Numbered from the stretch's first letter, positions 3,679 through 43,620 are shown. The stretch: DNA of 64,000 nt from Deltaproteobacteria bacterium (GCA_038043525.1 JBBTBW010000006.1:77442-141441), one strand, 5' to 3'. The notes: generated by a model not told the origin, from the letters alone. A program made the numbers and translations.

Positions 3679-3741
3679 GGACTCCGTAATCCCTGTCAGG
3701 CCACGGACTTGGGGCTTAGGTTGCGAGCTTGAACCCGCAGA
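3679..3741. repeat. Left copy of a 63-bp imperfect direct repeat (about 90% identity) bounding an AT-rich insert
   Basis: ggactccgtaatccctgtcaggccacggacttggggcttaggttgcgagcttgaacccgcaga matches 4793..4855 with 6 mismatches. Confidence 0.8.
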
Positions 3742-3884
3742 GAATATGTCGGCTTAAATTGACTTTATCAGTCTGTTGAAGTATTTTATCCTGTAAGATC
3801 CTGCAACTTTCTATACAGAAAGAAACAGCTGTGTTTGCCTTTTTATACGGACTGTATAATTGTTGTTATGCATAACGAGGGAGC

Positions 3885-4385
3885 ATGGAAGAGTTTCTGA
3901 ATCAGATTGAGGATTCTTACAAAATTGGTCACTTCTACCTAGCATTGTTCTGTTGTCTTACTCTTCCCGACATTTGCGGGGCGATATCGTCCGACGACGG
4001 AATAGCAACTGGTCAAAAGTACAAGAACTGGTTTAATACTTACGTTGCACCAAATTATGGAGGGAATTTCAATGGAAGCAACTGCTATGCGTTCAGGTGC
4101 GCGGCTCTACACCAAGGTAGGTCTGATCACAGGGATCTTGGTTACGCGAGGATAGTTTTTCTAGTTCCAACCGCTACAAATGAATCGCTCATGCATAACA
4201 ATGTGTTAAACGACTCACTTAATCTAGACGTAGTAGCGTTTTGTCATGATATAGTCGGTGCGGTTCGAACTTGGATGCGCTGCGAAGCGTCGAAGCCGGT
4301 CTTTCAAAGAAATATGGCAACATTTTTAAAACGCCATGAAGGTGGGCTTGAACCATATATCGTTGGTACCGACGTGTTAAGTTAA
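3885..4385 (+). CDS. Hypothetical protein (166 aa) inside the AT-rich insert
   Basis: Clean ORF, low GC relative to its surroundings, and no recognisable motif other than an Rx4H dipeptide pattern (RCAALH). Confidence 0.5.
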   Translation: MEEFLNQIEDSYKIGHFYLALFCCLTLPDICGAISSDDGIATGQKYKNWFNTYVAPNYGGNFNGSNCYAFRCAALHQGRSDHRDLGYARIVFLVPTATNESLMHNNVLNDSLNLDVVAFCHDIVGAVRTWMRCEASKPVFQRNMATFLKRHEGGLEPYIVGTDVLS

Positions 4386-4399
4386 GAGGAGAAAGCTTC

Positions 4400-4732
4400 A
4401 TGCCAATTTACGAATATGAATGCCCAAGTTGCAGCGCGCGCTTTGAGGAACTACGAAAAATAGCAGAACGTGACCAATTGCTTCGGTGCACAGCCTGCGG
4501 ATCAAACGTAGTTCGCGTTTTAAGTTCTCCTAACCTTTTGTTGAATGCGAATAGCAGATCGAGCAAAACCCTAGGGTCATCAGAGTCAGTTGTGGCTGAT
4601 GTTCAGATCACGAACGGCACCTTTAAAAACTCTAACATTGGCATAAGTCTTCCAGAGGGTGCGAAGGTTACGATGAAGGGTAGCAAATTCGAGAATGTTA
4701 AGACTCCGGTGGAGTTTAGAAAGAAGAAGTAA
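4400..4732 (+). CDS. FmdB-family zinc-ribbon protein with a low-complexity tail
   Basis: The N-terminus MPIYEYECPSCSARFE...CTACGS is the canonical FmdB/CxxC-x17-CxxC zinc ribbon. A GAGGAG RBS sits upstream and the gene starts 15 nt after the preceding ORF. Confidence 0.65.
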   Translation: MPIYEYECPSCSARFEELRKIAERDQLLRCTACGSNVVRVLSSPNLLLNANSRSSKTLGSSESVVADVQITNGTFKNSNIGISLPEGAKVTMKGSKFENVKTPVEFRKKK

Positions 4733-4792
4733 TAGCGTGAACGTTGCTACGCATAACCAATCGGTTCCTTCGTCGCTTTGCTTTTTTATGCT

Positions 4793-4855
4793 GGAATCCG
4801 TAATCCCTGTCAGGCCACGGACTTGGGGTTCAGGTTGCAAGCCTAAACCCGCAGA
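4793..4855. repeat. Right copy of the 63-bp direct repeat
   Basis: ggaatccgtaatccctgtcaggccacggacttggggttcaggttgcaagcctaaacccgcaga. Confidence 0.8.
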
Positions 4856-4880
4856 CAGGTTCGCGGCCAAAGCGCGCGTA

Positions 4881-5351
4881 TCAGTCTTCGTCCGGGACCT
4901 TGCAGCCTATCATGGAGAGGAAGTTTCTCTGCTCGGCGGAGAGCCTGTGCTGGCAGACATACCAGCTGACGGTGTGGATGCGCACCCAGCCTATCTTCTC
5001 AAGCTCCGCGACCTTCATCCCAAGGACGCAATGCGCAAGCATGTCATGTAGCCAGGCAGGGCATCCGTAGAACCGCCCTTCCCTTGAGAGCCAGCCTGAG
5101 ATAAGCGTCTGGTTGTGGAGCGGCGTCTTCTTCCAGTCGAGTTCGGTTATGTGGAATACCTCGACCGTCGCGTCTATGACGTCTTCCGGGTGCTTCTCAC
5201 GCCAGAGGCTCTTGACTATGTTCAGCCAGTGCTCGCCCTTATCAAGCATCCAGAAGAAAGGCCTGGGCTGTTCATCCTTTCTGATATGGGGAGAGACAAG
5301 ATGATATATGAGTTTTTCTTCGTTGTGCATCCTGTGTCTCCGCTCCATAGC
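4881..5351 (-). CDS. Hypothetical protein
   Basis: The ORF at 4881..5459 would overlap tRNA-Phe, so the internal Met (MERRHRMHNEEKL) at 5351 was chosen as the start. No family was recognised. Confidence 0.4.
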   Translation of the reverse strand, partial: AMERRHRMHNEEKLIYHLVSPHIRKDEQPRPFFWMLDKGEHWLNIVKSLWREKHPEDVIDATVEVFHITELDWKKTPLHNQTLISGWLSREGRFYGCPAWLHDMLAHCVLGMKVAELEKIGWVRIHTVSWYVCQHRLSAEQRNFLSMIGCKVPDED

Positions 5352-5426
5352 GCCGATGAGCTTCAATGAGAACATGTATGGATAAAAAAAAGGCTCAGGC
5401 GATAGCCGGAACCTTATGAGTTTATA

Positions 5427-5502
<76 letters not shown>

Positions 5503-5935
5503 ATAAGGCATTTGAACGACTATTTTCATGTATGCGCTACTGTTTAAAACGATACGGCCTTGGCACGCGATTTATAGCGCAACTTTAGCCGACCGGTAAA
5601 GAACCATGATTTTAACAGATAGAACGGTTTAGTCAAGGGTTTTGTGGTCTTGGCGAAAGAGGTTTTATCTGGCCGTTTAGAGCCGTTTTTTTGCAGGGGC
5701 TCAGGCGGCGCTTTAGGATTACAATCTTAGGCCCGTCAGATGACGCCACAACGGCATAACAAAGCATCTCATGGCAAGTTCATCGTAAAGGAGGCTTTCC
5801 GGCGCTCTGGCGCGACCGGCCGGGGTATTGCCCGGACGCCTTTCAACTGATAAATGGACAGCGCCTTTCATATCAGCTAAAATATCGTTTTGCCCGCAAG
5901 GGCGATATTATCTTCAGATCAGGGGTTATTTTTTT

Positions 5936-7765
5936 ATGTCGAACGCAGGCAAAAGGACCGGCGCTGTTGCTGGCCCTCTTATACTCATCGCCATAGGCGC
6001 ATTTATGGCCTGGATGAGCTGGCTCAGGTGGCCGGACCTTATCGTGGACTTCGGAAGGGAGGTCTATGTCCCCTGGCAGCTTTCTCTCGGAGAGATCCTC
6101 TACAGGGACATAGCTTATTTCAATGGCCCGTTGTCTCCGTATCTCAACGCCGCTGTCTTCAAGGTCTTTGGCGTTTCTATCCTCGCCATGGAACTAGCGA
6201 ATATTTTCTTCATAGGTCTCATCACATTCGTCGTCTACAGGGTCTTTGAGACTAAAGGCGACAGGGTTGCGCCTGTTATGATCGGGATGATGTTCCTTGT
6301 CATATTCGCCTTTGCCAAGTATTTTCCGATGGGCAGTTATAACTTCGTCGCCCCTTATTCTCATGAGCTTGTTCACGGGACACTTGTCTCGTTTCTAGCG
6401 ATATACATGCTCAAGCGTTATCTGCAGGGCCCAAGTGTTATCTGGATAGGGGCGGCAGGTCTCTTTACCGGGCTTGCGTTGCTTACAAAGGTGGAGGTCG
6501 CAGTCTCTGCTGTCGTTTCGGTGGCCATAGGGCTTATGGTCATCGTCTGGCTTGAGAGGGCGGCGGCCGTACGCGTAAAGAATCTTATACTCGCATTCAT
6601 CGCAGGTCTTCTGGCGCCTCTCGTCGCCTTTATAGGTTTTTTAAGTCTTTATATGGGGCTTGGCAACGCAGTCAAGGGCGCATTCGGATCATGGCTGATC
6701 CTTGCCACTACCGGCATAGCCTCAAGCTCGTTCTATACGCGGATGATGGGCCTTGACAAGGTCGGACAGAACCTGGGGCTGGTCTTCGAGTATGGCCTCT
6801 GGTGGGCCGTTGTCCTTCTTATCCCATTAGCGGCAACATATCTGCTCCGCAATAACCCATTTGCGAAGAGGCACGGCTGGGCCATTGCGTTTGTTATCTC
6901 AGCGGGTGCGGCCATCTACTTCCTCGGCTCGGTATCGTGGCTCTTGATATTCAGGCCTCTCCCGCTCTTTGTCATCGCTATCATCATCGTCCTTTGGGCA
7001 GGTCTCATGCATGCAAGGCATGACAGGGAGTCATGGTCAAGGGCAGTACCGCTCCTTTCAATAGCCGTATTTTCCATTCTGATGCTCCTGAAAATTGTCC
7101 TCAACTCGCAGGTCAATGGCTACGGCTTTGTCTTGGCAATGCCCGGAGCCCTTCTGACCATTTACATGATAATCTCCAGGATGCCTGCGGCATTGGAAAA
7201 GAGGTGGGGATCTTCTTCTACCTTCAGGGGTTCTATCCTTGCTGTCGTCCTTGTCATCTTCGGATGGCATCTGTTGGAGGAGTGGAAGTATTACAGGCCG
7301 CTGACGTATCCTGTAGGCAAGGGCGGCGACACTATCCTCACCTATCCGCCCGAATCGGTAGGAGTCGGCTTCGGCATGAACGTACTCCTTGAAAATATCG
7401 AAAGGATAATGGGGCCTGAAGAGGGTTTTGTCGTAATGCCTGAAGGCGCGCTCGTCAACTATCTCTCAAGGAGGCCGAACCCGACCGGCTTCATCAACTT
7501 CGTACCGGCGGACGTGCAGATGTTCGGCGAGTCAGCTATGCTTGCCGCTTTGAGGAATGCGCCTCCTGAGTTCATGATAATGATCAGCAGGGATACCTCT
7601 GAGTACGGGGCCGCATACCTGGGGCAGGGGTACGGCTACGGTCTCTTCTCGTTTGTCTCGTCAAGATATGAGCCGGTATTGCAGATAGGTAGCCCTGACT
7701 TTCTCGTTGAGTCGAAAGGGTTCAGTCAGCCGCTGGGCATGATAGTTATGAAGCGCATAGAGTAA
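5936..7765 (+). CDS. Polytopic membrane protein with a C-terminal soluble domain; possible GT-C-type glycosyltransferase
   Basis: More than 10 predicted TM helices followed by a roughly 180-aa hydrophilic C-terminus. The ATG at 5936 is preferred over the upstream TTG at 5828. The functional call is weak. Confidence 0.35.
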   Translation: MSNAGKRTGAVAGPLILIAIGAFMAWMSWLRWPDLIVDFGREVYVPWQLSLGEILYRDIAYFNGPLSPYLNAAVFKVFGVSILAMELANIFFIGLITFVVYRVFETKGDRVAPVMIGMMFLVIFAFAKYFPMGSYNFVAPYSHELVHGTLVSFLAIYMLKRYLQGPSVIWIGAAGLFTGLALLTKVEVAVSAVVSVAIGLMVIVWLERAAAVRVKNLILAFIAGLLAPLVAFIGFLSLYMGLGNAVKGAFGSWLILATTGIASSSFYTRMMGLDKVGQNLGLVFEYGLWWAVVLLIPLAATYLLRNNPFAKRHGWAIAFVISAGAAIYFLGSVSWLLIFRPLPLFVIAIIIVLWAGLMHARHDRESWSRAVPLLSIAVFSILMLLKIVLNSQVNGYGFVLAMPGALLTIYMIISRMPAALEKRWGSSSTFRGSILAVVLVIFGWHLLEEWKYYRPLTYPVGKGGDTILTYPPESVGVGFGMNVLLENIERIMGPEEGFVVMPEGALVNYLSRRPNPTGFINFVPADVQMFGESAMLAALRNAPPEFMIMISRDTSEYGAAYLGQGYGYGLFSFVSSRYEPVLQIGSPDFLVESKGFSQPLGMIVMKRIE

Positions 7766-8040
7766 AGAGTACGTCTGCCGTGTTTGTCAGGTTCTTCGAG
7801 GATCGGGCGGCAGAAGTTTGAAACAGCCATCAGAGCGAGCGCTGGCAGATGCTCATTAATTGTTTTATCGGATCGAATAGGGGCTGAAGAGGTCTTTCGG
7901 GATAGACTGTGTCGTATGTTTTTCAGGGCTGTTCGGATGTGGGCGGCCGGGTATGGAGGCAAGGGGCCGGAAGGAATGCGGCTGAGCCTTGGGCAGAGCC
8001 ACGTGATATTTTCAGGTGTAGATCCCTTGGAAGGCCGTAG

Positions 8041-8787
8041 CTACCCGATAGGCTCTCTGAGATCTCCTGTCTCGTATTGTATGATTGCGATTGCGGCCAG
8101 AGCCGCTGTCTCAGCCCGGAGTATCCTGGGCCCGATACTGACTGCGACGAAGCCTGCTTTTTCGGCAGCGGCGACATCTTCGACTGAGAAACCGCCTTCA
8201 GGCCCGACTGCGACGACGATCGCACTGTCAAGGTCGGCGTTTTTAAGTGCCTCTTTTATTGAGATTGTCTTACCAGTACCTTCCCATAGTATCAGTCTGA
8301 TCCCCTCGGTACATCCCATGACCGCGTCTTTGAAGGCGGCTACAGGCGTTAGTTCAGGCAAGCGCGTCCTGCCGCACTGTTTGGCGGCCTCGATAGCGGC
8401 CTTCCTCCACCTTGTCCATTTTGTCTTTGAACCGTTTGATATCGGGATAGTCCTTGAAGTGGTGAAAAACGTGATCGTAGCTGCTCCAAGCTCTGTAGCC
8501 TTTTGGATCACGAACTCCGGCTTGTCTGATTTGAGAAGGCCTTGCAGGAGCCTGATAGCTCTGGGGCTTTCAAGCCTGCCGTAAGCAGTCCCTTCGACAG
8601 AGACGATTGCGCAACCAGCCTCCATCGCCGTGATCCGGCCTTGGACTTCAAGACCCTTGCCGTCAAAGACCGCAAGATCGTCGCCCTGTTTGAGCCTCAA
8701 GACCCTTTTGAGGTGGGTGAACTCGTCACCTGAGATGCGCACAGACTCCGCTCCGGCAGTTATATCTTCCGAGAAAAAACGCCTCAT
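8041..8787 (-). CDS. rsmE: 16S rRNA (uracil1498-N3)-methyltransferase RsmE
   Basis: MRRFF...GDEFTHLKRVLRL...PEGGFS...AVSIGPRILRAETAA matches the RsmE PUA/SPOUT layout. The start overlaps the prmA stop by 4 nt. Confidence 0.8.
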   Translation of the reverse strand: MRRFFSEDITAGAESVRISGDEFTHLKRVLRLKQGDDLAVFDGKGLEVQGRITAMEAGCAIVSVEGTAYGRLESPRAIRLLQGLLKSDKPEFVIQKATELGAATITFFTTSRTIPISNGSKTKWTRWRKAAIEAAKQCGRTRLPELTPVAAFKDAVMGCTEGIRLILWEGTGKTISIKEALKNADLDSAIVVAVGPEGGFSVEDVAAAEKAGFVAVSIGPRILRAETAALAAIAIIQYETGDLREPIG

Positions 8788-9725
8788 CCGAGAGCCTTTT
8801 TGATGATGGTCGCCGCCCACTCGCCTGACGTATAGTCCTTGAACTCCTTGAAGCCGTGCGCCTTGAAGGCGTTTTTTACCGTCTCTCTCTCATGGACGAG
8901 TATGCCGGAGAGTATAAGGAACCCGTTGTCCGCGACCTTTGCCGAGAGGTCCGTTGACATGCGCATAAGGTCTCCGGCGAGTATGTTTGCCGCCACAAGC
9001 GGGAACCTGCCGCGTATTTTTTCAAGGGGCTTGAGCGTCATCAGGACAACGGCCTTGTTCATCCGCGCGTTCTTGCGGGCGACCGTGGCGGCCACATGGT
9101 CTATCTCAGTGCCGACGGCCATTTTTACGCCGAGTTTCTTTGCGGCTATCGCAAGGAGCCCTGTCCCTGTGCCGACGTCGAGCATCCCTGAAAGGAGTCT
9201 TTTCCGTTCACTCCCGAGCAGAAGCGTTGTAACGGCCTTCAGGCACATCCGGGTTGTCGCGTGGCCGCCTGTTCCGAATGCCATGCCCGGGTCGATCTCG
9301 ATCAGTATATCCCCTTTCTTCTTCGTAACGGTCTTCCATGTAGGCTTGACTATGACAGAGACGCCTTTGCACGTGACCTTGACCGTTTTTACGGATGCGC
9401 GCCAGGAGTGCGACCAGTCCCGGTCTTTGTAGTCTGATGTGGCCAGCCTCCAGCCGAGGCTTCTGAGGCGCTCATCGAGCCTTCTGACAAGGCCGGCGTC
9501 CTTTTGCGGGAGGTAGGCCTTGAGTACGGCCTCAGGGCTGTCAGATTCCGTAAAGGCCGGAAGCTCGCCCTCCCAGAGGCTATATGAGACGAGTGTGCCC
9601 ACGGCCGATGGTTTGTCTTCGATCTCTTCGACTCCCGGGCTGCCCGCCTCGATGAGCGCGAGTGTTGCCGCGTCCTTTTCCGGCCTCGGTCCGGCGGCCT
9701 TTATCTCGATCCATTCTTTTATCAC
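8784..9725 (-). CDS. prmA: Ribosomal protein L11 methyltransferase PrmA
   Basis: FGTGGHATTRMCL and the DVGTGTGLLAIAA SAM-binding motif, with PrmA length and layout. Confidence 0.85.
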   Translation of the reverse strand: MIKEWIEIKAAGPRPEKDAATLALIEAGSPGVEEIEDKPSAVGTLVSYSLWEGELPAFTESDSPEAVLKAYLPQKDAGLVRRLDERLRSLGWRLATSDYKDRDWSHSWRASVKTVKVTCKGVSVIVKPTWKTVTKKKGDILIEIDPGMAFGTGGHATTRMCLKAVTTLLLGSERKRLLSGMLDVGTGTGLLAIAAKKLGVKMAVGTEIDHVAATVARKNARMNKAVVLMTLKPLEKIRGRFPLVAANILAGDLMRMSTDLSAKVADNGFLILSGILVHERETVKNAFKAHGFKEFKDYTSGEWAATIIKKALG

Positions 9726-9749
9726 TATCCGTCCTTTGTCGTCCGATGG

Positions 9750-10238: not shown

Positions 10239-10275
10239 ATCCCACCTCCGTATGGTTTGTCTGGCTTCTAAACTG

Positions 10276-10935: not shown

Positions 10936-10985
10936 CTCAGAGGGCCTTTCCTTTTGATGTTATGGCTGAGTGCGTGTCAGGAGGC

Positions 10986-18301: not shown

Positions 18302-18379
<78 letters not shown>

Positions 18380-18385
18380 AAAATA

Positions 18386-19799
18386 ATCAGGGGTTACGCA
18401 ATTGCGTAACCCCTTTTTTGTTCTCAGAGGGGTTATTAGCTAACATTTTTCTAACAATACAATCTAAAGATACGGGGTATTCTCTTTGCTGGCTCAGATT
18501 TATAACCTGAACCCGCAGTAGAGTGAAATCTATCGAAATAGGTAATGAATTGGGTAGTGACCGATTGGAGAGCAAATGAAAAAATCAGAAGAACATTTGC
18601 TGTTTTCCTTAAGGCGGGCATTGAAAGATTTTAAATCAGATCCGTATGCTGACGGACGTTATGAAAGCCCACATTCTGAAGCAGAACTTGATTTGGACGA
18701 GAATGAACTACCTCTTCCATATATGGTGTTCTTGACATTGGTTACTTTTTCGGGTTTTTCATACTGGGGACGTGAGGAAAAAGTGGCTTGGTCTATACCG
18801 ATCCTCTATAAGGACATTCCTTTTTTATTGGCCTACCGTAAATTTGGATTCGACATAACGACGCCAGCCCTTACGAATGAAACCCGGAAAGCAGCAAAGG
18901 AAATGGTAAGCAAGCTACATAAGGGCATAGTTGTTGCCGACAAACTGCTGAAACCGTTTGCTGAGGCACAAATTAGAAAAAGAAACGTCACCATTCTCAA
19001 TAAATATCATAGTTTTAACAACAGATATCGTTTCTTTCGTGAGCAAGCGGCGCAAAGCTTCTCGAAACTGTCCCAAAGAGGCGCTTTGCAGACGAATAAA
19101 ACAACCAGTACAGTTGAAATATTAAATAACATCTCTACGTTAAGTAACGAAGGTTTCTATCATGCATCAGCTATGCTGGATGCTTATTTTAGTCGCCTGG
19201 AACACGTGCTTGTTTTGTTGCTCGCCTTTACCGATTACAATAGCAAAAAGGACGACCTGGTGAGATTTATAGGCTCCTTTTGGGACGATAAATTCACACG
19301 CATATTTGATATCCAAAAAGATGCTGGGGCAAAGAAATGTTACGATCGATTATGCAATATTAAAGACAGATTCCGGAATCCCCTTTCACATGGAGGTTTT
19401 GAAAGACAGGGAGCATCTCTCAACTTCCATGTACCTGTAGTAGGGGCAATACCTGTTCACCTTTCGAGATTCAAGGATAGTATTCATTATTCCTTTCACC
19501 CGATAGACGAAACCAGCTTCGAAGAGATATGTTCTTTGTTTGACAACGCCGATAAGCTTTTAGAAAACGGAGAAATAAAATTTGGCATGAGATATATAGA
19601 TAGTGGCCTTAACGTAGCCTTTGACGAAGACATGTTAAAGGAGTATCGGCAAGCAATACGATCTGAGAAAGAGATCGAAAATTTTATACAGCATCTGTCT
19701 GATCTATCAGATATGCACACGAATTTGAACTGGTGAGAACCTAACCACTTCATGACCCAATCCTCGCAACTACAGGCTCAGACTAAGTCTTAATGCGAA
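18386..19799. mobile_element. Degenerate tRNA-Met-integrated islet of about 1.4 kb with no integrase
   Basis: Bounded by the tRNA 3'-end direct repeat, with lower GC and a single cargo ORF. Confidence 0.5.
18576..19736 (+). CDS. Hypothetical protein (386 aa) of the tRNA-Met-associated insert; possible HEPN/Abi-like
   Basis: AT-rich ORF with no recognisable family. It contains an Rx4H motif (RNPLSH) of the kind found in HEPN nucleases. Confidence 0.5.
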   Translation: MKKSEEHLLFSLRRALKDFKSDPYADGRYESPHSEAELDLDENELPLPYMVFLTLVTFSGFSYWGREEKVAWSIPILYKDIPFLLAYRKFGFDITTPALTNETRKAAKEMVSKLHKGIVVADKLLKPFAEAQIRKRNVTILNKYHSFNNRYRFFREQAAQSFSKLSQRGALQTNKTTSTVEILNNISTLSNEGFYHASAMLDAYFSRLEHVLVLLLAFTDYNSKKDDLVRFIGSFWDDKFTRIFDIQKDAGAKKCYDRLCNIKDRFRNPLSHGGFERQGASLNFHVPVVGAIPVHLSRFKDSIHYSFHPIDETSFEEICSLFDNADKLLENGEIKFGMRYIDSGLNVAFDEDMLKEYRQAIRSEKEIENFIQHLSDLSDMHTNLNW

Positions 19800-19817
19800 T
19801 CCCCGCTACCAAAAATA
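19800..19817. repeat. 18-bp att-like direct repeat, right copy
   Basis: tccccgctaccaaaaata, followed by a hairpin aagagggtggtattcataccgccctctttt. Confidence 0.75.
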
Positions 19818-21809: not shown

Positions 21810-22244
21810 ATGAGGTTCCCGCACAACAACCAGAAGCTGAAAAAGAAGAGGCGTGAACTCAGACGGAATCAGACAGACGCTGAAAAGATGCTTTGGGCAC
21901 GGTTACGCAATAAACAATTTTATGGCGTAAAGTTCTTTCGACAATACAGCATGGGTGAGTATGTCCTGGATTTTTACTGCCCATCGCTAAAAGCCGCTAT
22001 AGAGCTGGACGGTGGACAGCACGCTGAAGACGAACAACGTAATCGCGACACTATACGCACAAACTATCTGCAAACGCATGAGATTACAGTCCTGCGATTC
22101 TGGAATAACGACGTACTCTCTAATATGGAGGGCGTCCTTGAGGAAATGTCCACACGACTAACCCCTCCCGGCCTCCCCTTAAATAAGGGGAGGAGTGAAG
22201 AAAAAGAAGAGGCGCAAACTCAGGCGGAAATATATAGGCGGTGA
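21810..22244 (+). CDS. DUF559 endonuclease-domain protein (Vsr-like fold)
   Basis: Hallmark DUF559 block: TDAEKMLWARLRN...FRQY...YVLDFYCPSLKAAIELDGGQH...RD...L...G..VLRF. Confidence 0.8.
   Translation: MRFPHNNQKLKKKRRELRRNQTDAEKMLWARLRNKQFYGVKFFRQYSMGEYVLDFYCPSLKAAIELDGGQHAEDEQRNRDTIRTNYLQTHEITVLRFWNNDVLSNMEGVLEEMSTRLTPPGLPLNKGRSEEKEEAQTQAEIYRR
22158..22195. repeat. 38-bp direct repeat, copy 2 (inside the 3' end of the DUF559 gene)
   Basis: ctaacccctcccggcctccccttaaataaggggaggag. Confidence 0.8.
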
Positions 22245-36692: not shown

Positions 36693-36707
36693 AATCTGCG
36701 CGGCATG

Positions 36708-38639
36708 CTACAGGGACCTTGCGAATGATCTTGCGGCCTTGAACAGGTATATGTTCTCGTTGGAGTCCTGCATATTGGTCTCGTTCAGAATGTACCTGTG
36801 ATCAAGCGAGAAGAGCCATGCCCGGAGCGGATAGACCAGGCTGTTTTGAATGGTAGACGTCCTTGTGAGCTGCCTGTCTTCGCGTTTCTCCGATATGCTT
36901 GAATCAAACTTCCAGGCCATGAGACCTAAAAGAGGCCTGTTGTAACTCGCCCGATACATGGCGGTAGAAGACCTGTCGTTGCCGCCGGCGTATTCGCGCT
37001 CAGTGAGCCTGTATGAAGCGGATAGCTCAAGCGGGCCGCCAAAGAGCACGCTGTTTTGCGAGATGTTCACGCCCTCGGTATCTACGGTTATCCATCCGTT
37101 GGTATCATTGAAAGTCTTGAGGCGCTCGGCGAACCCGGTAAGCGCGGCTGTTTTGAAGAGGTTTGTGCTGGTATCGAGCCTGTATGACTCGGACCTCTGG
37201 TCCATGCCTTCGATCCAGCTTGATGTAGAGCTCTTGTTGGCGCTGCCTGAGACCGAAATATGCTCGACGAAGGCCTTGTTGAAGAAGCTGAGATTGTAGG
37301 TCCTGGTGTTCGTGTTCGTCTTTCCGGTCGTCGATTCGCTCTCGGAAAACGATGCCGACGTGTTAAATCCGATATATTTGTTGAAGTTTATATTGCCCAG
37401 GCTTACCCCGCCGCTTTGGCCTACGGCGGTGCCTTTCTCTTCTCCTACCTCTTCTTCGATGTACGTGCCGCCGTAGGATATGCCCAAAGACGTCCAACTG
37501 AAGGAATCGCCATAGCTGGCTGTTGTAGTGGATGAGAAGGTCTTGTAGTCGCTTGTATTGGTGGATGTGGAATCGCTGGAGTTTGTCTGGCTGTTATTGT
37601 AGTTGACGTTTTCGGAGAGGGATATCGTCCTAGTCAGCTTGTATGTGACGCCTCCGCTTGAGGAGTTGCCGGAAGACTTGCTCTGAGAGCTCTCTGTCTC
37701 GCTCTCGGACTTGTTAAACCCCACAGAGGCACTTGTAGACAGCTCTTTTGAGATGTTGTATGACATGTTTCCTGAATAGGTCGACCCGTTCATGCGCCCG
37801 TCGTCAGAGGTCTTGTAGGCAGAATAGGCATGATGCTGTTGGAAGTCCCTGCTAGGCGCGGAGTTTAGCGAGAAGGAGTAGCCTTCATGCGCTGATTCTC
37901 CGTTTCTGCTGTTCTGTGAGTCGCTCCTTGATCCTCCCGCAGAAAAGGATGTGTTTTTGGAGACTTTGGTTCCGTGGGTCGCGTTTATCTGCCGGGTTGA
38001 CGATCTGTCTCCGGAGCTTGACTTGCTCTCGTTTTTGCGCAGAAATACCTCGTTGGTCGTAGGTCCTATGTCCTTGTCGATGTTCAGGTTAGTAGCGGTA
38101 GTATTATTCTTTGAATTGGCTGATTCCGTCTCCGTGCTGTCGATGGTCAGCTGGAGCTTGGGGAGCTTGGTTGTAAGAAGACGCCACTCGAGCCCGTAGC
38201 CGGTGGTTGTGCCTTTATTCGTGCCGCCGCCGCTGCTGCTTGTGCTCTCTTTTCTTGTCCCGTGCAGGGTCAGCGGGATAGCGGAGTTCGGCAGGATCGT
38301 GGTCTTTACGCGATAGTCAATGTCATCGGTCTCCGTCTCGCTTCCGTTTGTGTCCTGGTTGACGGTTGTGTAAGTAACATTGGCGTCGTATATGAAGACC
38401 TTTCGGGAGACAAGGTTCCCTATAGTGTCAAGCTTATAGCGTTCCGTGAAGTGTGAGTTCTTTGTTTTGTACTGGTCGGTGATGAAGTTTGCTTTTTCGT
38501 ATTCCAGGTATATAGTGCCGGTAAGCGTCCTGTATAAGTAGGGATCCTCTTCGACGCTTAAGCCTTTTGCGGGATAAAAAAGCACCGACGCAAAGGCGGC
38601 TAGAAGCGTTGCCAAATATGTCCATCTGCCGCGGAACAT
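36708..38639 (-). CDS. Secreted Ser/Thr/Asn-rich protein, putative outer-membrane beta-barrel
   Basis: Signal peptide, extreme S/T/N/G bias, alternating hydrophobic patterns typical of amphipathic beta strands, and aromatic residues near the C-terminus. Confidence 0.4.
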   Translation of the reverse strand: MFRGRWTYLATLLAAFASVLFYPAKGLSVEEDPYLYRTLTGTIYLEYEKANFITDQYKTKNSHFTERYKLDTIGNLVSRKVFIYDANVTYTTVNQDTNGSETETDDIDYRVKTTILPNSAIPLTLHGTRKESTSSSGGGTNKGTTTGYGLEWRLLTTKLPKLQLTIDSTETESANSKNNTTATNLNIDKDIGPTTNEVFLRKNESKSSSGDRSSTRQINATHGTKVSKNTSFSAGGSRSDSQNSRNGESAHEGYSFSLNSAPSRDFQQHHAYSAYKTSDDGRMNGSTYSGNMSYNISKELSTSASVGFNKSESETESSQSKSSGNSSSGGVTYKLTRTISLSENVNYNNSQTNSSDSTSTNTSDYKTFSSTTTASYGDSFSWTSLGISYGGTYIEEEVGEEKGTAVGQSGGVSLGNINFNKYIGFNTSASFSESESTTGKTNTNTRTYNLSFFNKAFVEHISVSGSANKSSTSSWIEGMDQRSESYRLDTSTNLFKTAALTGFAERLKTFNDTNGWITVDTEGVNISQNSVLFGGPLELSASYRLTEREYAGGNDRSSTAMYRASYNRPLLGLMAWKFDSSISEKREDRQLTRTSTIQNSLVYPLRAWLFSLDHRYILNETNMQDSNENIYLFKAARSFARSL

Positions 38640-38911
38640 GATCTGAGGTGCGGTCCTTTTGAATAGTTGTAGTAGCAGGCTGCCGAATGAACTTCGACTG
38701 CTTGGCTGGCATCAAATCTCGTTGCCGCTGCGTATACATGGATACGCAGCCTGACCTGCTTCCGGACGCCGCGCATCCGGAGCTTTTTAAGTTGCCTGAA
38801 CAGAACCTGATTTTTTCAGCAAAACGTCAGAGTGATCATAATAGATGTATGCCGGTATCACACCGGCCGCGCGCATCGGGGTAGTACCCGATGCGTTAAT
38901 GATCTCAAGTC

Positions 38912-39727
38912 TTATTTCGACCAGGCGCAACGGAAGCCGACGTCATCGAAGAGGCCTTCCGGTGGGGCGGCGTTCCTGAACGCTGTCCGCACATATACCT
39001 GAAGGTTGTAGTGTCCCATGCCACCCCAGCCGCCGCCGCGCACGACCTTGAACTTCTCGCCGTAGTCCTTGTCGTTAAAGTCGTTTCCGGGATACTGCTT
39101 GTACCAGTCGGAGGTCCATTCCTGCGCGTTTCCGGCCATGTCAAGGAGACCGTACGGGCTCTTGCCTTCTGTGAAAGTACCTACGGGAGTCGTCCCTCCG
39201 TAGGCGCCAAGCGTGTTTACTTTTTTGTCATCGAATTCCGCGCCCCACGGGAACCTGTTGCCGTCAGTACCTCTGGCGGCCTTTTCCCATTCAAGCTCGG
39301 TCGGCAGGCGCTTGCCTTTCCACTGGCAGTAGTCCTGAGCGTCGTACCAGCTGACAAGGATCACAGGGTGGTCGGCGATCTGCGCCGGGTATCCGTTAGC
39401 CCATCCAGCCGGGAGCCTGTGGCTGGTCTTGTCTGCGAACTCCTTGTACATGGCGTTCGTCACTTCAGTCTTATCTATGTAGAACTCGCCTATCGACTCT
39501 TTCCTCTCAGGCCTCTCGTTTGCGTACCAAGGCCGCCTGTCGCCGTACTGGAGCGCCTTTGCCTCTTTATCTACCTCGTTGCTGCCTACGATAGCATCGC
39601 CCTTTGGGATCTGTATCATGTCCTGAGGCGGTTTCTTGCATCCGAACGGCAGAAGAAGTATTGCGGATAGGAAGAGTATTTTAAGGCCTGTCCTTCCAGC
39701 GATAGACTGCATTATTGAGACCTCCAT
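38912..39727 (-). CDS. FGE-sulfatase (SUMF1/EgtB/PvdO) domain lipoprotein
   Basis: WYDAQDYCQWKGKRLPTELEWEKAARG...RGGGW matches the FGE-sulfatase domain signature. N-terminal lipobox PFGC. Confidence 0.75.
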   Translation of the reverse strand: MEVSIMQSIAGRTGLKILFLSAILLLPFGCKKPPQDMIQIPKGDAIVGSNEVDKEAKALQYGDRRPWYANERPERKESIGEFYIDKTEVTNAMYKEFADKTSHRLPAGWANGYPAQIADHPVILVSWYDAQDYCQWKGKRLPTELEWEKAARGTDGNRFPWGAEFDDKKVNTLGAYGGTTPVGTFTEGKSPYGLLDMAGNAQEWTSDWYKQYPGNDFNDKDYGEKFKVVRGGGWGGMGHYNLQVYVRTAFRNAAPPEGLFDDVGFRCAWSK

Positions 39728-39923
39728 GGGAATATTGCATATTGAGATACGATCCGGCGAAGCCTGCGACAGGTAGCCGCAAAGGCCCTGAGCTCATTGG
39801 TTTTTACCCGCGTTCAGGCGGCTTTAATGCCCTCATCTCTTGCCCTCCTTAAAAAGAGGGCAGGGGACGGCGCTTGTTTCGCGTCGTAAAAACCTCTGTG
39901 GCCGGATAGAGTGCGCGCCTTAT

Positions 39924-40946
39924 CTATTTTGCACCGGTAGCGCACCTGAACCCGAAGTTGTTGTTCCTGGTGTGCGGGTGAAAAAATATTCTATTGTAAG
40001 CAGGCGAGCTTATCCCGCACTTGTAGTTTGTGCAGTCGAACCATGACCCGCCTCTTAGGACCTTGAACTTCTCCCCGTAGTTTTCATCCGAGTGGGTATT
40101 GCCTGGGTAGGGCTTGAACCAGTCGTCTACCCATTCGAATGCGTTTCCGGCAAGGTCATAGACGCCGTACGGGCTTTTACCGCTCTCGAAGCTGCCTACC
40201 TGCATGGTGTCTTCGTTGCCGAACTGCGGAGTATTACCTTTGTTCTTGTCGAACTGGTCCCCCCACGGGAACGTTCTTTTGTCTGTGCCTCTGGTGGCCT
40301 TTTCCCACTCGCGTTCTGACGGGAGCCTCTTGCCCTCCCACTTGCAGAAGGCATCAGCGTCATACCAGCTCACGAATACTACGGGATGGTACTCTTTGCC
40401 TTCCGGTATCCTGCCGTCTGTCCAGTGGCCCGGAGCTTTAACCTTGCCGGCATCTACAAATGCCTTATACCGCTTGTTCGTGACCTCATACCTGTCTATA
40501 CGGAAGGCGCCGAGGCTTTCCTTGTGTTCCGGCTGGCTCTTGGGCCACCAGTCGTTAGAACCCATCGTGAACTCGCCGGCAGGCACAAGCGCCATCTCAT
40601 TAAACTGTCTGGCAGATCTCTTTTTTACAGCGCTCATGACCGGTGTCGCGCCGTCCGCGCTGCTCGCCACCATGAATCCGCCTTTAGCGTCATGAGGCGT
40701 CCTGAACCTTTCGTTTATGCTTACATAATTTTCGCTAAGCCCCGGGCCGTGGCATCCTACGCATGTCTCGTCTCTTGTATAATCCGTTGAGTAGCGTCTC
40801 TCCGGAGTGTGGCAGTCCATGCATTTGGGCTCGCCTGTGACCGGGTCGTAATCGCCGCTTTGGGCCCCTGCCTGGTGCGCATAGGCAAAAAGGCCTAAGG
40901 CCAGCGCGAATGCCGGAACAATGGCATACTTGATCTTTTTCTTCAT
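39924..40946 (-). CDS. Dihaem cytochrome c fused to an FGE-sulfatase (SUMF1-like) domain
   Basis: Signal peptide, CMDCH and CVGCH haem-binding motifs, then WYDADAFCKWEGKRLPSEREWEKATRG...RGGSW. Start placed at ATG 40946 with an AGGAAA RBS. Confidence 0.7.
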   Translation of the reverse strand: MKKKIKYAIVPAFALALGLFAYAHQAGAQSGDYDPVTGEPKCMDCHTPERRYSTDYTRDETCVGCHGPGLSENYVSINERFRTPHDAKGGFMVASSADGATPVMSAVKKRSARQFNEMALVPAGEFTMGSNDWWPKSQPEHKESLGAFRIDRYEVTNKRYKAFVDAGKVKAPGHWTDGRIPEGKEYHPVVFVSWYDADAFCKWEGKRLPSEREWEKATRGTDKRTFPWGDQFDKNKGNTPQFGNEDTMQVGSFESGKSPYGVYDLAGNAFEWVDDWFKPYPGNTHSDENYGEKFKVLRGGSWFDCTNYKCGISSPAYNRIFFHPHTRNNNFGFRCATGAK

Positions 40947-41000
40947 GATATTTTCCTGTGCTAGGGCGGCAGACTGCAAAAGTCTTACCCGCCAGGATGG

Positions 41001-41486
41001 TTACTTCTTTGATTCCTCGGCCTGTTTGCCTTCGCGTTCAAGTTGTCTTATGAAGGCCAGCACCGACCACCTCTCTTTTTCCGAGAGTATATCTGCCCAT
41101 CTCGGCATCGACATCGCCTCACCGCCGATTTCCTTGTGTATGCCTAAGGTGATGGATTCATACAACTCATTATCCGTCTTGGACATCCTCTTAGTGTCGG
41201 CTACGAAATCAGCAGGGTGCGGCGTGAGCGCGATGCCGACAGGGCCGTCGCCGCGGCCCTTCTGTCCATGGCAGAAGTGGCAGTACCTGAAGTAGATCTC
41301 TTTTCCAACGACAGTATCGGCTGACGCCTGTGTCGCTGCTTGGCTCGTTACTGTCTGCGGTCCAGTCGCGGCCTTCTCTTTTTTACCGTCTCCGGGCGAA
41401 CATCCGTAGAGTGCCGCTGAGCCGATCAGTAGCACTAACAATGCCGGAAGCCGCGCGGCCGGATAGAACGATCTCTTTATTTTCAT
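41001..41486 (-). CDS. Monohaem class I c-type cytochrome
   Basis: Signal peptide with lipobox-like LYGCS, haem site CHFCHG and a distal Met (SMPRW). Confidence 0.7.
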   Translation of the reverse strand: MKIKRSFYPAARLPALLVLLIGSAALYGCSPGDGKKEKAATGPQTVTSQAATQASADTVVGKEIYFRYCHFCHGQKGRGDGPVGIALTPHPADFVADTKRMSKTDNELYESITLGIHKEIGGEAMSMPRWADILSEKERWSVLAFIRQLEREGKQAEESKK

Positions 41487-41551
41487 GATATGAAGCCCTT
41501 TTCCTGATGGTCTTGCAACCATGCCCGTCCATTATTTCGTATCCAGCCGCC

Positions 41552-42586
41552 CTATTTCTTGTCGAGGTATTCGATCTTGGCGACGCTTTTCATCTCTGTT
41601 ATCCATGCATTCCAGAGCATCTTCTGTTCTTTTGACTCGAGTTCCTTTTCGAGTTTTTCCTTGTTCAGATCTTCAAACTTCTTTTGTGTGGAGACCTTCC
41701 GATCTACCAGCTTGACTATGTGATAGCCGTATATGGTTGAGACAGGCTCGCTGACCTCGCCTGGCTTCATCTTTTCGGCGGCCGCGTCTATCTCATCGAA
41801 GAGGCTTCCTTTGTGCGCCCAGCCCATGTCGCCGCCGTTCTTGGCGTTGGGGTCTTCAGAGTGCAGCTCTGCGATCTTGGCGAAGTCCTCACCGGCCCTT
41901 ATCTGCTTGAGTATGTCCTGCGCCTTTTTAAGAGAGGCGTTCCATGCCTTTTGACCGCCTGACGGGTCGGCCTTTATAAGGATAGACTTCAGGTGTATCT
42001 GTTCCGGCTCCTTGAACTTGGCGAGGTTCTTGTCGTAGTAAGCCTTCATGAATGCTTCGTTTACGGCGTTTTCGGCTTTTTTCTTGAACTCCTCTATCTT
42101 CTTCTGCGAGACGCGGGCTACGAGTATCCCCATCTTCATGTCAAGTTTGAGTTCATCCATCGTCATATTGCTTCTTTTAAGGACGGCCTCGAGCTTATCG
42201 CCTTTGGGCAGGTTTTTCTTTATCACAGCTATCTTGGCGTCGACCTCTTTTGCCTTTACGTCGTCCATCTTATTCTCAACGGCGTACTTGAAGATCAGCT
42301 CGTTGGTGACGATTTTTTCAAGGGCCTGGGCGCGGATCTGCTTGAGGCGCTTCTCGCTGACGGATGAATGGTACGATACGATCGGCATGAGGTTGTTTAT
42401 GGCTATCTCGAGGTCCTCTTTGGTTATGTCCCTGCCATTGACCCTGGCTACGATCTCAGGCGTCCTGGCTGAGACGGCCGCCGGTGCGTCTTTTGCTTGC
42501 ACTGACTCCGCACCGTAAAAACCTGCCGGCGAGAGCAGCATTAGAAAGACGGACATTGCCAACGTTTTTCTGGAAAGATAGGCCAT
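41552..42586 (-). CDS. SurA/PpiD-like periplasmic chaperone with a parvulin PPIase domain
   Basis: Signal peptide, a chaperone domain and a C-terminal parvulin motif GGDMGWAHKGSLFDEIDAAA...GYHIVKL. Confidence 0.75.
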   Translation of the reverse strand: MAYLSRKTLAMSVFLMLLSPAGFYGAESVQAKDAPAAVSARTPEIVARVNGRDITKEDLEIAINNLMPIVSYHSSVSEKRLKQIRAQALEKIVTNELIFKYAVENKMDDVKAKEVDAKIAVIKKNLPKGDKLEAVLKRSNMTMDELKLDMKMGILVARVSQKKIEEFKKKAENAVNEAFMKAYYDKNLAKFKEPEQIHLKSILIKADPSGGQKAWNASLKKAQDILKQIRAGEDFAKIAELHSEDPNAKNGGDMGWAHKGSLFDEIDAAAEKMKPGEVSEPVSTIYGYHIVKLVDRKVSTQKKFEDLNKEKLEKELESKEQKMLWNAWITEMKSVAKIEYLDKK

Positions 42587-42909
42587 TTCGATACCTCCGA
42601 TTTTAATGACTGCTGATTATAATATAAAGTCATGTAAATATAAAACTAAAAAAACAAAGGCTCAGGCTTGAAAAATCTCCGCAATCTGACGCCTGTCTAT
42701 TGTATTCGGAGACCTTTAAATGCGTATTAGTCTTAAATTAAAAATTTTTAATGGGAGGCAGGCCGCTCCAGCGTTCTAAGGCCCGAAAAAACCTCACTGT
42801 AAGTACCTATCGGCTCTGACAGATAGATAATTGAGGAAAATCTGGGCACGGTCTTTCAGCCTTTAAAAAGCAGAGATAACCCATCTTCGATCGTCTGCCG
42901 GTATAGAAA

Positions 42910-42936
42910 AGGAGGGCCGAGAATCGGCCCTCCTTT
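42910..42936. terminator. Intrinsic terminator hairpin, A-run upstream and T-run downstream (bidirectional)
   Basis: aaaa ggagggccgagaatcggccctcc tttt. Confidence 0.6.
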
Positions 42937-42944
42937 TCTGATGC

Positions 42945-43620
42945 GCTATGCGGTTTTGACGCCGCAGAGTTTTTTTTACTTGTTGCGGCAGGTTCTGCAG
43001 AGGCCTGAACCGGAGTTGCCGCTGACCCTTCTGAGGAAGAGACCGTTGGACTCTTCTTCAAGATCGAGCACCGCTACGTTCGTGTAGGTGGAATCCACCT
43101 CGTTGTACACTTGTTGTTGAAGTGCGGGTCGTGGCAGGAAGGAGCATAAAGGAGGCCGACGAGCAGGCTCGGTATCTACTCAGTGCGGGTTCAAGTTTGC
43201 AACTTGAACCCGATAATTCGTCAAGGCGCATTTTGAGATTTATGGAGCAGGTTGCAAACCTGCTCCCGCCATAGGCGTAGACAAGGTTCCGGCCTTTGAA
43301 TTTATCCTTTGTCTTGAAACAAACCCGGGCCATGGCGTAGCGAGCCTGACTGAGAGACGACGAGCAGGCGGCGGGTGTGACCCGCCCTACCGCCTGAAAG
43401 AGAGCGATGCGAGTCATACCCAAAAAGCCGCACGGAAGTGCAAAGCTAAAATCAGACCTATATTTTTTGCAAGGGGCCGTTAGAGCCAAACCAGAAGCTC
43501 ACGGTGGTGCGCAAAAAGAAAATCAGCAAATACATGACCGCTGGAATAGTTGCTTTGTCATTGGCGTCAAACAAAACCCGGACCGTGGCGTAACGAGCCG
43601 TATTAAGCTCAAGTAAGAAA
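42945..43620. repeat. Gene-free region of about 0.7 kb with internal direct repeats and multiple hairpins; candidate structured ncRNA locus
   Basis: The motif aaacaaa(a)cccgg(g/a)cc(a/g)tggcgta(g/a)cgagcc occurs twice, at 43316 and 43567. Hairpins are ggagcaggttgcaaacctgctcc, ggcgggtgtgacccgcc and the palindrome cgggttcaagtttgcaacttgaacccg. No ORF with an RBS is present. Confidence 0.5.

Follow-up and report, generated by a model that had tools for sequence, protein, structure and literature searches.

A dispersed motif in deltaproteobacterial DNA is one end of a REP hairpin from a family associated with RAYT transposase genes

Closely related copies of one short motif at the borders of a small AT-rich insert, near the ORF of a tRNA-Met island and in a large gene-free region of the same 64,000 nt stretch of DNA (the window) raise the question of what they have in common. 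An earlier note had counted four dispersed copies and offered two explanations, a common recombination or recognition site of the inserts or a small REP/MITE-like repeat family. The motif CTTGAACCCGCAG (reverse complement CTGCGGGTTCAAG) consists of the unpaired foot GCG and the outer arm of a hairpin of about 27 nt, a REP (repetitive extragenic palindrome), of which it forms one end. The REP consensus is 5'-yyT-GCG-GGTTCAAG-TTTGYAA-CTTGAACC-C-3', comprising an unpaired GC(G) foot, a stem of 9-10 bp that is variable while remaining paired and, at the centre, the conserved TTTGNAA. The hairpins are palindromic stem-loops of 23-29 nt with a stem of 9-12 bp, and in most loci two of them are inverted around a spacer of 10-90 nt to form a REPIN-like doublet with the outer ends CTGCGGGTTCA... 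and ...TGAACCCGCAG. Because the hairpins of a doublet are inverted, the motif had been noticed in both orientations. As a whole, the observations are very probably explained by a REP/REPIN-type hairpin family associated with the RAYT transposase, an ordinary kind of bacterial repeat that is unusual in being shared almost unchanged across many phyla of uncultured bacteria.

The window carries three inverted hairpin doublets, at 3650-3741, 4792-4855 (truncated) and 43185-43269. These and the neighbouring features are given below with scores for R1, a covariance model that was trained on other genomes only and then run on the window.

3650..3674, plus strand: REP hairpin A1, left half of doublet A (R1 30.8 bits, E 4.8e-7); foot GC at 3650-3651, stem GGTTCAAT / ATTGAAC, centre TTTGTAA at 3661-3667
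3675..3711, plus strand: spacer of doublet A, from 3678 part of a 64-nt direct repeat
3712..3741, minus strand: REP hairpin A2, degenerate, homologous to 4826-4854 via the 64-nt repeat; arms GGGCTTAGG / CTTGAACCC, centre TTGCGAG, then the foot
3742..4791, plus strand: low-GC insert with a two-gene module (43% GC against 53% in the window)
3885-4385: insert gene for a 166-aa protein
4400-4732: insert gene for a 110-aa Zn_ribbon_8 protein
4792..4825, plus strand: spacer of the truncated doublet B, beginning the right 64-nt repeat
4826..4854, minus strand: REP hairpin B2 (R1 24.8 bits, E 3.3e-5); arms GGGTTCAGG / CCTAAACCC, centre TTGCAAG, foot GC at 4851-4852
18491..18518, no strand assigned: possible decayed single REP GGCTCAGATTTATAACCTGAACCCGCAG (R1 10.3 bits, E 0.95)
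43185..43212, plus strand: REP hairpin C1 (R1 51.2 bits, E 2.8e-13); foot GC at 43185-43186
43213..43243, plus strand: spacer of doublet C, containing a small hairpin
43244..43269, minus strand: REP hairpin C2 (R1 39.1 bits, E 1.4e-9); GGAGCAGG-TTGCAAA-CCTGCTCC, then foot CGC

Both copies claimed for the left insert are real, at 3728-3740 and 4842-4854, and the repeat that they end is 64 nt long and 91% identical. The left one is the exact 13-mer CTTGAACCCGCAG inside A2, whose 3' arm and foot are canonical (CTTGAACCCGCAGAG) and whose final 15 nt recur unchanged on the right side of a RAYT gene at another locus (L206), while A2 as a whole (3712-3741) gave no R1 match at E<=10. The right one is the two-mismatch copy CCTAAACCCGCAG inside B2; doublet B lacks its left hairpin and has the same spacer core, CCGTAATCCCTGTCAGGCCACGGACTTGG, as doublet A. 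Two hairpins had been missing from the earlier list, namely A1 with the sequence GGTTCAATTTTGTAAATTGAAC at 3653-3674, which fits the pattern GGTTCAANTTTGNAANTTGAAC, and C2 with the sequence GGAGCAGGTTGCAAACCTGCTCC at 43244-43266. The perfect palindrome of the gene-free region does exist, as CGGGTTCAAG-TTTGCAA-CTTGAACCCG in C1, but it lies at 43186-43212 and not at 43193-43222, and had been quoted with an extra c; if fully paired it has arms of 12 bp and a 3-nt loop. C1 and C2 have the same centre and foot and differ in the stem by compensatory changes, and doublet C matches the doublets of two other MAGs (L053 and L108) at 80% over 85 nt. This doublet adjoins no insert. Predicted folds were stable for 43175-43275 (z -4.3 to -4.8) and for 18491-18518 (z -4.8), and for B2 the minus strand gave the better fold (z -2.5).

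The number of motif copies is by itself a poor guide to their significance. With at most one mismatch the 13-mer CTTGAACCCGCAG occurs 3 times in the window against 0.12 expected, but this is a post hoc test and by our own estimate 64 kb should contain about 150 such 13-mer triples somewhere, so that the count alone proves little. That the similarities are chance matches among unrelated hairpins is also favoured by the many pairs of 27-43 nt at 71-82% identity within the window. Decisive are instead the matches of the other-genome model R1 to four hairpins, at 43179-43219 (51.2 bits, E 3e-13), 43235-43275 (39.1 bits, E 1e-9), 3644-3683 (30.8 bits, E 5e-7) and 4818-4858 (24.8 bits, E 3e-5). The family is also massively over-represented in public genomes. 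Only 10.3 bits (E 0.95) were obtained at 18482-18522. Chance is thereby a very remote explanation of the similarities overall; it is refuted for 3650-3741, 4792-4855 and 43185-43269, and is a fair account of 18491-18518 alone.

Outside the window, species-representative genomes gave at least 117 stretches with the pattern GGTTCAANTTTGNAANTTGAAC, where chance would give about 4; they come from Nitrospirota, Brocadiaceae/Planctomycetota, Deltaproteobacteria/Thermodesulfobacteriota, Patescibacteria, Cloacimonadota and Chloroflexota. These loci contain 184 hairpins with a TTTGNAA/TTNCAAA centre and arms of at least 6 bp, whereas four control centres gave 0-5. The search pattern did not impose the foot, which is nevertheless conserved with G at -11 in 154/176 and C at -10 in 137/176, nor the TT conserved 6-7 nt 3' of the stem. 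Stem variants covary (GGTTCAAG, GGAGCAGG, GGACGGGG, GGAACTGG and others), with double changes in eight of the nine stem pairs and 97.8% paired cells against 81.7% in shuffles, in figures where 6/9 pairs were already required by the selection of hairpins. The hairpins lie outside ORFs in 173 of 181 cases (96%), in loci that are 78% coding, and the genes beside them are unrelated housekeeping genes. Several genomes are multi-copy, one MAG having as many as 7 contigs with an exact match among the matches listed, and seven 120-nt doublets of one Brocadiaceae MAG aligned end to end. These results support a dispersed extragenic repeat family in more than 100 genomes.

RAYT genes adjoin the hairpins in 5 of the at least 117 loci (117 listed), where about 0.5 would be expected. 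Two of the encoded proteins, in L093 and L083, scored 99.8 and 80.2 bits against NCBIfam NF047646 (REP-associated tyrosine transposase; cut-off 80 bits), and inverted hairpins flank both genes. In a reverse search from RAYT homologues hairpins were present in 44 of 80 metagenomic loci, on both sides and in the order '>' gene '<' in 32 of them, and 36/80 had no hairpin by the strict hairpin definition. Five RAYTs from the flanked metagenomic loci scored 83-92 bits against NF047646. The order in L206, read directly, is CCTGCGGGTTCAAG...RAYT...CTTGAACCCGCAGAG, with the right flank exactly as in the window. RAYTs with the same REP are 51-76% identical and come from at least six phyla, mostly from uncultured organisms. 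The proteins match Pfam Y1_Tnp with 24-27 bits, and the score with the NCBIfam IS200 model was only 18 bits, where 55 is the cut-off. No RAYT gene lies within the 64-kb window with its three doublets. The hairpin architecture and its association with RAYT genes are shown by these data and, since the REP hairpins form inverted doublets and flank RAYT genes, the earlier idea of a REP/MITE-like family is supported: inverted REPIN-like pairs, extragenic in more than 100 genomes.

Doublets A and B bracket a foreign 1.1-kb cassette. The 64-nt direct repeat, at 3678-3741 and 4792-4855, has a motif copy at each 3' end and consists of an identical core of 32 nt with one mismatch to its left and five to its right; it is neither tRNA nor tmRNA nor any Rfam family. 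The closest relatives found lack the block 3605-4880, and the cassette block is thereby shown to be an insertion: L135, the closest of these, has 141 unrelated nt in its place, and in L133 the two flanking genes are only 64 nt apart. The two-gene cassette is cargo and stands outside the repeat family, being found in other contexts with no REP in L136, L137 and L139; the block 3805-4792 is 88% identical to the REP-less copy in L136. That homologue is situated directly 3' of a tRNA. The second insert, the tRNA-Met island, has at its boundaries two copies of an 18-nt sequence from the tRNA 3' end, TCCCCGCTACCAAAAATA, at 18368-18385 and 19800-19817, and the motif is absent from this repeat. The copy described as upstream of the island ORF is present as CCTGAACCCGCAG at 18506-18518 with one mismatch, 58 nt upstream of the ORF starting at 18576, but it is inside the island, 121 nt from the edge. 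The surrounding 18491-18518 has the 10-mer GAACCCGCAG in common with 3731-3740 and folds well, yet is at chance level for R1 (E about 1), and its REP membership is uncertain. Neither insert encodes an integrase or recombinase.

The other proposal of the earlier note, that both AT-rich islands share the motif as an att or recognition site for site-specific integration, draws on the motif ending both 64-nt repeats of the first insert and on the similar 13-mer in the second island. Against it speak the separate 18-nt repeat of the tRNA-Met island with its internal, chance-level copy, the lack of an integrase in either insert, the occurrence of the cassette elsewhere without REP, a doublet at 43185-43269 next to no insert, and over 100 genomes in which the same hairpins are found between housekeeping genes; the proposal is contradicted for the tRNA-Met island and is regarded as highly unlikely overall. 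A primary role as functional RNA (terminators, 3'-end stabilisers or protein-binding stem-loops) instead of mobile DNA is improbable. In its favour, the folds are stable, the position is intergenic, the stem is often followed after 5-8 nt by a T-rich stretch, and such secondary roles are ascribed to known REPs (PMC3733652). However, there was no match to an Rfam family, the U-tract is separated from the stem, the doublet has no preferred transcribed strand because it is two-fold symmetric, and the conserved foot and centre are explained by the linkage of the hairpins to RAYT genes.

The small, promoter-less-looking, low-GC cassette, with structured repeats of some 60-90 nt at its borders, also resembles an integron gene cassette between attC sites. 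The taxa involved are known to carry chromosomal integrons. No integron integrase is present, though, the ends CTGCGGGTTCA... and ...TGAACCCGCAG do not fit RYYYAAC...GTTRRRY cores, two local hairpins with locally covarying stems (GGTTCAAG and GGAGCAGG partners in one unit) replace the long R/L-box fold, and the units flank RAYT genes. The attC interpretation is contradicted by the features tested and has next to no probability.

By analogy with RAYT/IS200-type enzymes, the REP doublets would be non-autonomous mobile DNA, acted on by a single-copy RAYT, a Y1 HUH enzyme that has the same hairpins on either side of its own gene. The RAYT would recognise the folded single-stranded hairpin with its foot, and cut and rejoin there. 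How the cassette came to lie between two doublets is a further matter, for which an explanation that complements the main one is that a resident REPIN recombined, homologously or via RAYT, with circular DNA that carried the cassette and part of a REPIN. The intact resident element would be hairpin 3650-3674, spacer and hairpin 4826-4854, and its recombination with the circle within the identical 32-nt core would leave the 64-nt direct repeat behind. Consistent with such an integration site are the absence of block 3605-4880 from relatives, the identical core with its flanking mismatches, one left and five right, and the well-formed hairpins 3650-3674 and 4826-4854 being outermost, as a resident element predicts. 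On the other side, an empty site with an intact REPIN was not seen, the cassette is without REP in L136, L137 and L139, an identity of 32 nt is short for RecA-dependent recombination, and two independent REPIN insertions beside an AT-rich cassette acquired earlier would look alike; the sole basis of the model is how the six mismatches are distributed within the 64-nt repeat. A resident REPIN may have been the landing pad for the 1.1-kb cassette in this lineage, which is a tentative proposal and on balance rather doubtful. More speculative, and unlikely, is a joint reading in which REPINs are portable landing pads or handles for cassettes and the near-identical RAYT/REP pair has passed between at least six phyla by horizontal transfer, the cassette entering via a resident REPIN or RAYT moving a REP-cargo-REP unit. 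If true, it would make of the pair a cross-phylum cargo-mobilising system and not a vertically inherited genomic commensal.

Among known systems, the REP/BIME elements of E. coli with RayT and the REPINs of Pseudomonas (PMC3116915, PMC3337134, PMC3479197, PMC5581495) are alike in being short extragenic palindromes with a conserved unpaired foot where the stem begins, in their inverted pairs with a short spacer, in the many copies per genome and the conservation of whole doublets, and in a Y1/HUH RAYT gene between two inverted REPs, copy number and gene order being seen here in the other genomes. The two REP superfamilies described (PMC3733652) have the foot tags GTAG or CGTC, unlike the GC(G) found here, and in contrast to classical REPs it is the apical centre TTTGNAA that is invariant, with stems that vary. 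REPIN-RAYT systems are described as mostly vertically inherited (PMC5581495); unlike those lineage-specific systems, the present REP is near-identical in at least six phyla, which is unusual. IS200/IS605 elements and their miniature derivatives, the PATEs (PMC6006769), have a related enzyme and sub-terminal hairpins recognised as ssDNA, but here the transposase gene is apparently single-copy and greatly outnumbered by the hairpins, and the hairpins flanking it are inverted and not direct. The tRNA-Met island of the window belongs to the tRNA-targeting islands with att repeats, the motif being outside its att repeat, and unlike such repeats the 64-nt repeat is not derived from tRNA or tmRNA. 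Integron attC sites and cassette arrays likewise have structured repeats of 60-120 nt that bound a small cassette of foreign composition; here, by contrast, there is neither IntI nor any RYYYAAC/GTTRRRY core, each unit has two local hairpins in place of a single long imperfect fold, and the linkage is to RAYT genes and not to an integron integrase. A MITE of a DDE transposon would have a target-site duplication and terminal inverted repeats like those of a DDE insertion sequence; inverted ends are present in the family described here, but as hairpins linked to a Y1 transposase.

The exact 13-mer CTTGAACCCGCAG, which the earlier note had flagged at the insert borders, was located at 3728-3740 by reading the sequence directly, and the copy with two mismatches was present at 4842-4854. 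Each of them closes one copy of a direct repeat of 64 nt (3678-3741 and 4792-4855, 91% identical), and a further copy with one mismatch lies at 18506-18518. The palindrome reported from the gene-free region exists as CGGGTTCAAG-TTTGCAA-CTTGAACCCG, at 43186-43212 rather than at 43193-43222, the sequence quoted for it having been one base too long. Allowing one mismatch, the 13-mer occurs three times in the window versus 0.12 expected, in a post hoc test; by our estimate, some 150 triples of this kind are to be expected when all 13-mers of the 64-kb window are considered, and the repeat finder returned many chance pairs that were equally good, so the window by itself is indecisive on the motif.

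An additional hairpin, GCTGGTTCAATTTTGTAAATTGAAC at 3650-3674, adjoins the left 64-nt repeat and closely resembles the palindrome at 43186. Another, GGAGCAGGTTGCAAACCTGCTCC at 43244-43266, lies 31 nt downstream of the palindrome and has a TTGCAA apex that is also present in hairpins within both 64-nt repeats. Each locus therefore consists of two hairpins in inverted orientation, and the outer ends of the pair, CTGCGGGTTCA... and ...TGAACCCGCAG, are the two orientations of the noted motif. Searches for tRNA, tmRNA and Rfam families gave no match over the hairpin sites, permissive thresholds included. A 41-nt covariance model of this REP (short extragenic hairpin), R1, was trained exclusively on hairpins from other genomes and then applied to the window, all filters disabled.

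R1 matches and REPIN-like doublets (pairs of inverted REPs) in the window
43179-43219, plus strand: R1 match, 51.2 bits, E 3e-13
43235-43275, minus strand: R1 match, 39.1 bits, E 1e-9
3644-3683, plus strand: R1 match, 30.8 bits, E 5e-7
4818-4858, minus strand: R1 match, 24.8 bits, E 3e-5
18482-18522, plus strand: R1 match, 10.3 bits, E 0.95
3650-3741: doublet A
4792-4855: doublet B, left hairpin missing
43185-43269: doublet C

The hairpin at 3712-3741, which carries the exact motif, is too degenerate for an R1 score and is homologous to 4826-4854 via the direct repeat; the R1 matches together with this homology give the window three REPIN-like doublets. A single repeat family thereby accounts for the motif at its scattered sites, for the direct repeat of 64 nt and for some of the "gene-free" region. 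The motif-like copy in the tRNA-Met island scored at chance level with R1; it could be a REP that has decayed or just a coincidence. No gene for a REP-associated tyrosine transposase (RAYT) was found within the 64-kb window.

A scan of 596 Gb, one genome per species, with the pattern GGTTCAANTTTGNAANTTGAAC (19 specified bases) matched at least 117 stretches versus about 4 expected by chance. The records among the matches listed are MAGs and enrichment genomes, several of them matched in up to seven contigs. Their hosts, among the matches listed, are Nitrospirota/Thermodesulfovibrionales, Brocadiaceae and other Planctomycetota, Deltaproteobacteria/Thermodesulfobacteriota, Patescibacteria, Cloacimonadota, Chloroflexota and one Bathyarchaeia MAG; the comparison genomes being mostly MAGs, single phylum assignments could reflect binning errors, although dozens of independent bins, and enrichment-culture genomes as well, show the pattern. 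Conserved in the matches listed, and not part of the search pattern, are a GC dinucleotide directly 5′ of the stem (G in 154 and C in 137 of 176 hairpins) and a TT 6-7 nt 3′ of it. Most loci have a second hairpin, GGTTCAGG-TTRCAAA-CCTGAACC-CGC, 10-90 nt downstream. When the stems were relaxed, the invariant part was the centre TTTGNAA and the foot, and stems such as GGAGCAGG, GTAGGGGCAGG or GCGTTCAAT were each seen with the matching partner strand. The loci, at least 117 in number, hold at least 184 TTTGNAA-centred hairpins versus 0-5 for four control centres, and double changes occur in eight of nine stem pairs (101 distinct hairpins), the pairing of six of these being imposed by selection.

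Coding sequence makes up 78% of the loci among the matches listed, and 173 of their 181 hairpins fall outside ORFs. The adjoining genes are unrelated housekeeping genes, and all-against-all clustering of the 2104 ORFs from the 117 loci listed gave housekeeping families only and no conserved neighbour gene. Seven 120-nt doublets of one Brocadiaceae MAG align over their full length, spacer included; the core shared by the spacers of doublets A and B (GTAATCCCTGTCAGGCCACGGAC) had no matches in the metagenome scan. The hairpin pattern had no matches in viral contigs and there is thus no sign of a phage vector, and a literature text search found no papers with the exact hairpin sequences. Tandem REP units were also observed in some genomes, as three doublets with a 179-nt period (L123:4434-4860), as two doublets with a 199-nt period (L063:12-284) and, with a period of 39 nt, as three single hairpins (L047:3900-4000).

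The link to a transposase came from a BLAST search of all locus ORFs with two query sequences, including E. coli RayT, which picked five proteins; the RAYTs surfaced solely through this targeted search, and Pfam and NCBIfam subsequently confirmed them. Three of the five are Y1_Tnp in Pfam. With NF047646, the NCBIfam equivalog model "REP-associated tyrosine transposase" (cut-off 80 bits), the proteins of loci L093 and L083 scored 99.8 and 80.2 bits, and the remaining three scored lower, one of these being truncated. The L093 RAYT gene stands exactly between two inverted hairpins, and those of L083, L114 and L032 are flanked in much the same way. The three best RAYTs, from Nitrospirae, Gracilibacteria and Peribacteria MAGs, have a mutual identity of 51-59%. 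The L083 protein (877-1452, minus strand) reads NHINL in place of its relatives' NHLHL, and with the second histidine of the HUH motif replaced this copy may be catalytically impaired.

In the reverse test the three best RAYTs were used as queries and retrieved 80 homologous loci from JGI metagenomes, 44 of which have TTTGNAA-centred hairpins and 32 of which have hairpins within 300 nt on both sides. In the flanked loci the GCG foot of the upstream hairpin lies on the same strand as the gene, the hairpin on the downstream side is inverted, and five of these flanked RAYTs scored 83-92 bits with NF047646. At locus L206 the RAYT gene is framed by CCTGCGGGTTCAAGTTTGCAACTTGAACCC and GGTTCAAGTTACAAACTTGAACCCGCAGAG, and the last 15 nt of the right frame are identical to window 3728-3742. 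A RAYT gene of the source genome would be expected to lie between hairpins of the GCG-GGTTCAAG type.

The 1.1-kb insert has a GC content of 43% versus 53% for the window and encodes a 166-aa protein without Pfam match and a Zn_ribbon_8 protein. In L135, the closest relative found (flanking protein 87% identical), the order is tRNA-Phe, 155-aa gene, 285 nt and DUF7836 gene, and 141 unrelated nt replace window 3605-4880; in the more distant L133 merely 64 nt separate the two flanking genes and there is no REP. As the region is different or absent in these relatives, the block of doublet A, cassette and doublet B was inserted in this lineage. This conserved two-gene module also turns up in other organisms, in unrelated surroundings (L136, L137 and L139), directly after a tRNA in L136, where it is 88% identical across window 3805-4792, and beside an IS3-type transposase in L139. 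No REP match better than E 0.4 was found around these three homologues, and the cassette is therefore independent of REPs in general. The pair looks like a small mobile module. The two genes (window 3885-4732) are fused as one 271-aa protein in the comparison protein P0046.

At its left end the 64-nt repeat shows a single mismatch; an identical core of 32 nt comes next, five more mismatches fall in the right hairpin, and the outer hairpins are the two well-formed ones around the cassette. This pattern is compatible with Campbell-type recombination, in which a resident intact REPIN would have recombined with a circular DNA carrying the cassette and a REPIN fragment to give the direct repeat. 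With the REPIN as landing pad, the empty site would read ...ACTCCGTAATCCCTGTCAGGCCACGGACTTGGGGTTCAGG... and the circular or excised cassette ...TATGCTGGAATCCGTAATCC...GGACTTGGGGCTTAGG...; no empty site with an intact REPIN was found, and every contig from this population either has the insert or breaks within the repeat. Alternatively, two independent REPIN insertions may have taken place next to an AT-rich newcomer. From the sequence comparison we infer that the direct repeat may have arisen by Campbell-type recombination at a resident REPIN.

The suggestion that the motif is an att site common to two islands proved a false lead. The tRNA-Met island (18386-19817, 1.43 kb, 40% GC) has a single 386-aa ORF, for which Pfam gave no match, and lacks an integrase. 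Its borders are the two copies of an 18-nt direct repeat, TCCCCGCTACCAAAAATA (18368-18385 and 19800-19817), which is the tRNA-Met 3′ end plus 6 nt, and the motif is without a role at this border. Several public contigs of the same population stop at or within the tRNA, which suggests strain variation at this place. A tRNA or tmRNA fragment as att site, prompted by the T-arm-like GGTTCAA, was rejected by ARAGORN and Rfam, which gave tRNA-Phe and tRNA-Met only, without a match at the repeats when hits up to E 5 were allowed; no Rfam family was found at the hairpins of 18 related loci. Neither the core sites nor the overall fold are those of an integron attC and IntI is absent, the spacing is wrong for a sigma-54 promoter (GG-N10-GC), and a dimeric-repressor operator was rejected by the reasoning that covarying stems favour a folded strand over a duplex half-site.

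Other repeats were noticed in the window. A motif of about 40 nt occurs twice, 250 nt apart, at 43307-43346 (...AAACAAACCCGGGCCATGGCGTAGCGAGCC...) and 43553-43599 (...AAACAAAACCCGGACCGTGGCGTAACGAGCC...), within the same 1.08-kb intergenic region, and a strong terminator-like hairpin (43621-43652) follows the second copy; the pair had no Rfam match and might represent a small RNA, or else a regulatory site that was duplicated. Between the convergent 258-aa and 57-aa DUF7836 genes, at 3185-3236, there is a perfect inverted repeat of 24 bp (4-nt loop) that probably acts as a bidirectional terminator. Two pairs of direct repeats (21656-21693/22158-22195, 38 nt, 95%; 21839-21885/22200-22246, 47 nt, 81%), with copies about 360-500 nt apart, surround the DUF559 ORF 21810-22244 and may represent another small duplication or insertion. 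A 160-nt stretch (39213-39372 and 40231-40390, 71% identity) is shared by the adjacent minus-strand ORFs 38912-39727 and 39924-40979, which are probably tandem paralogues.

REP/RAYT work to date has mostly been done in Proteobacteria. The REP/MITE-like repeat family that had been proposed was borne out, the hairpin doublets and flanked RAYTs being the structural and genetic hallmarks of REP/REPIN-RAYT systems. The covariance model is reusable and can serve to mask these repeats in MAGs and to account for contig breaks. What defines REP/RAYT systems is a RAYT gene flanked by inverted REPs (PMC3116915, PMC3479197, PMC6006769), and the motifs NHLH, WQ and YIHHNP of the L093 RAYT resemble subclass 2.6 of PMC6006769. 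The foot is here GC(G), whereas the REP superfamilies described in PMC3733652 have GTAG or CGTC tags, and the invariant element is the apical centre and not the stem, unlike in known REP/REPIN-RAYT systems. The family combines the GC(G) foot, the conserved TTTGNAA apex and the freely covarying stems with a spread over many phyla, anammox Planctomycetota among them. Inheritance of REPIN-RAYT systems is described as mainly vertical, with horizontal transfer possibly dominant only over long time scales (PMC5581495); in contrast, one REP occurs here with RAYTs 51-76% identical across many phyla, and the family is a test case for whether REPIN-RAYT systems are always vertically inherited.
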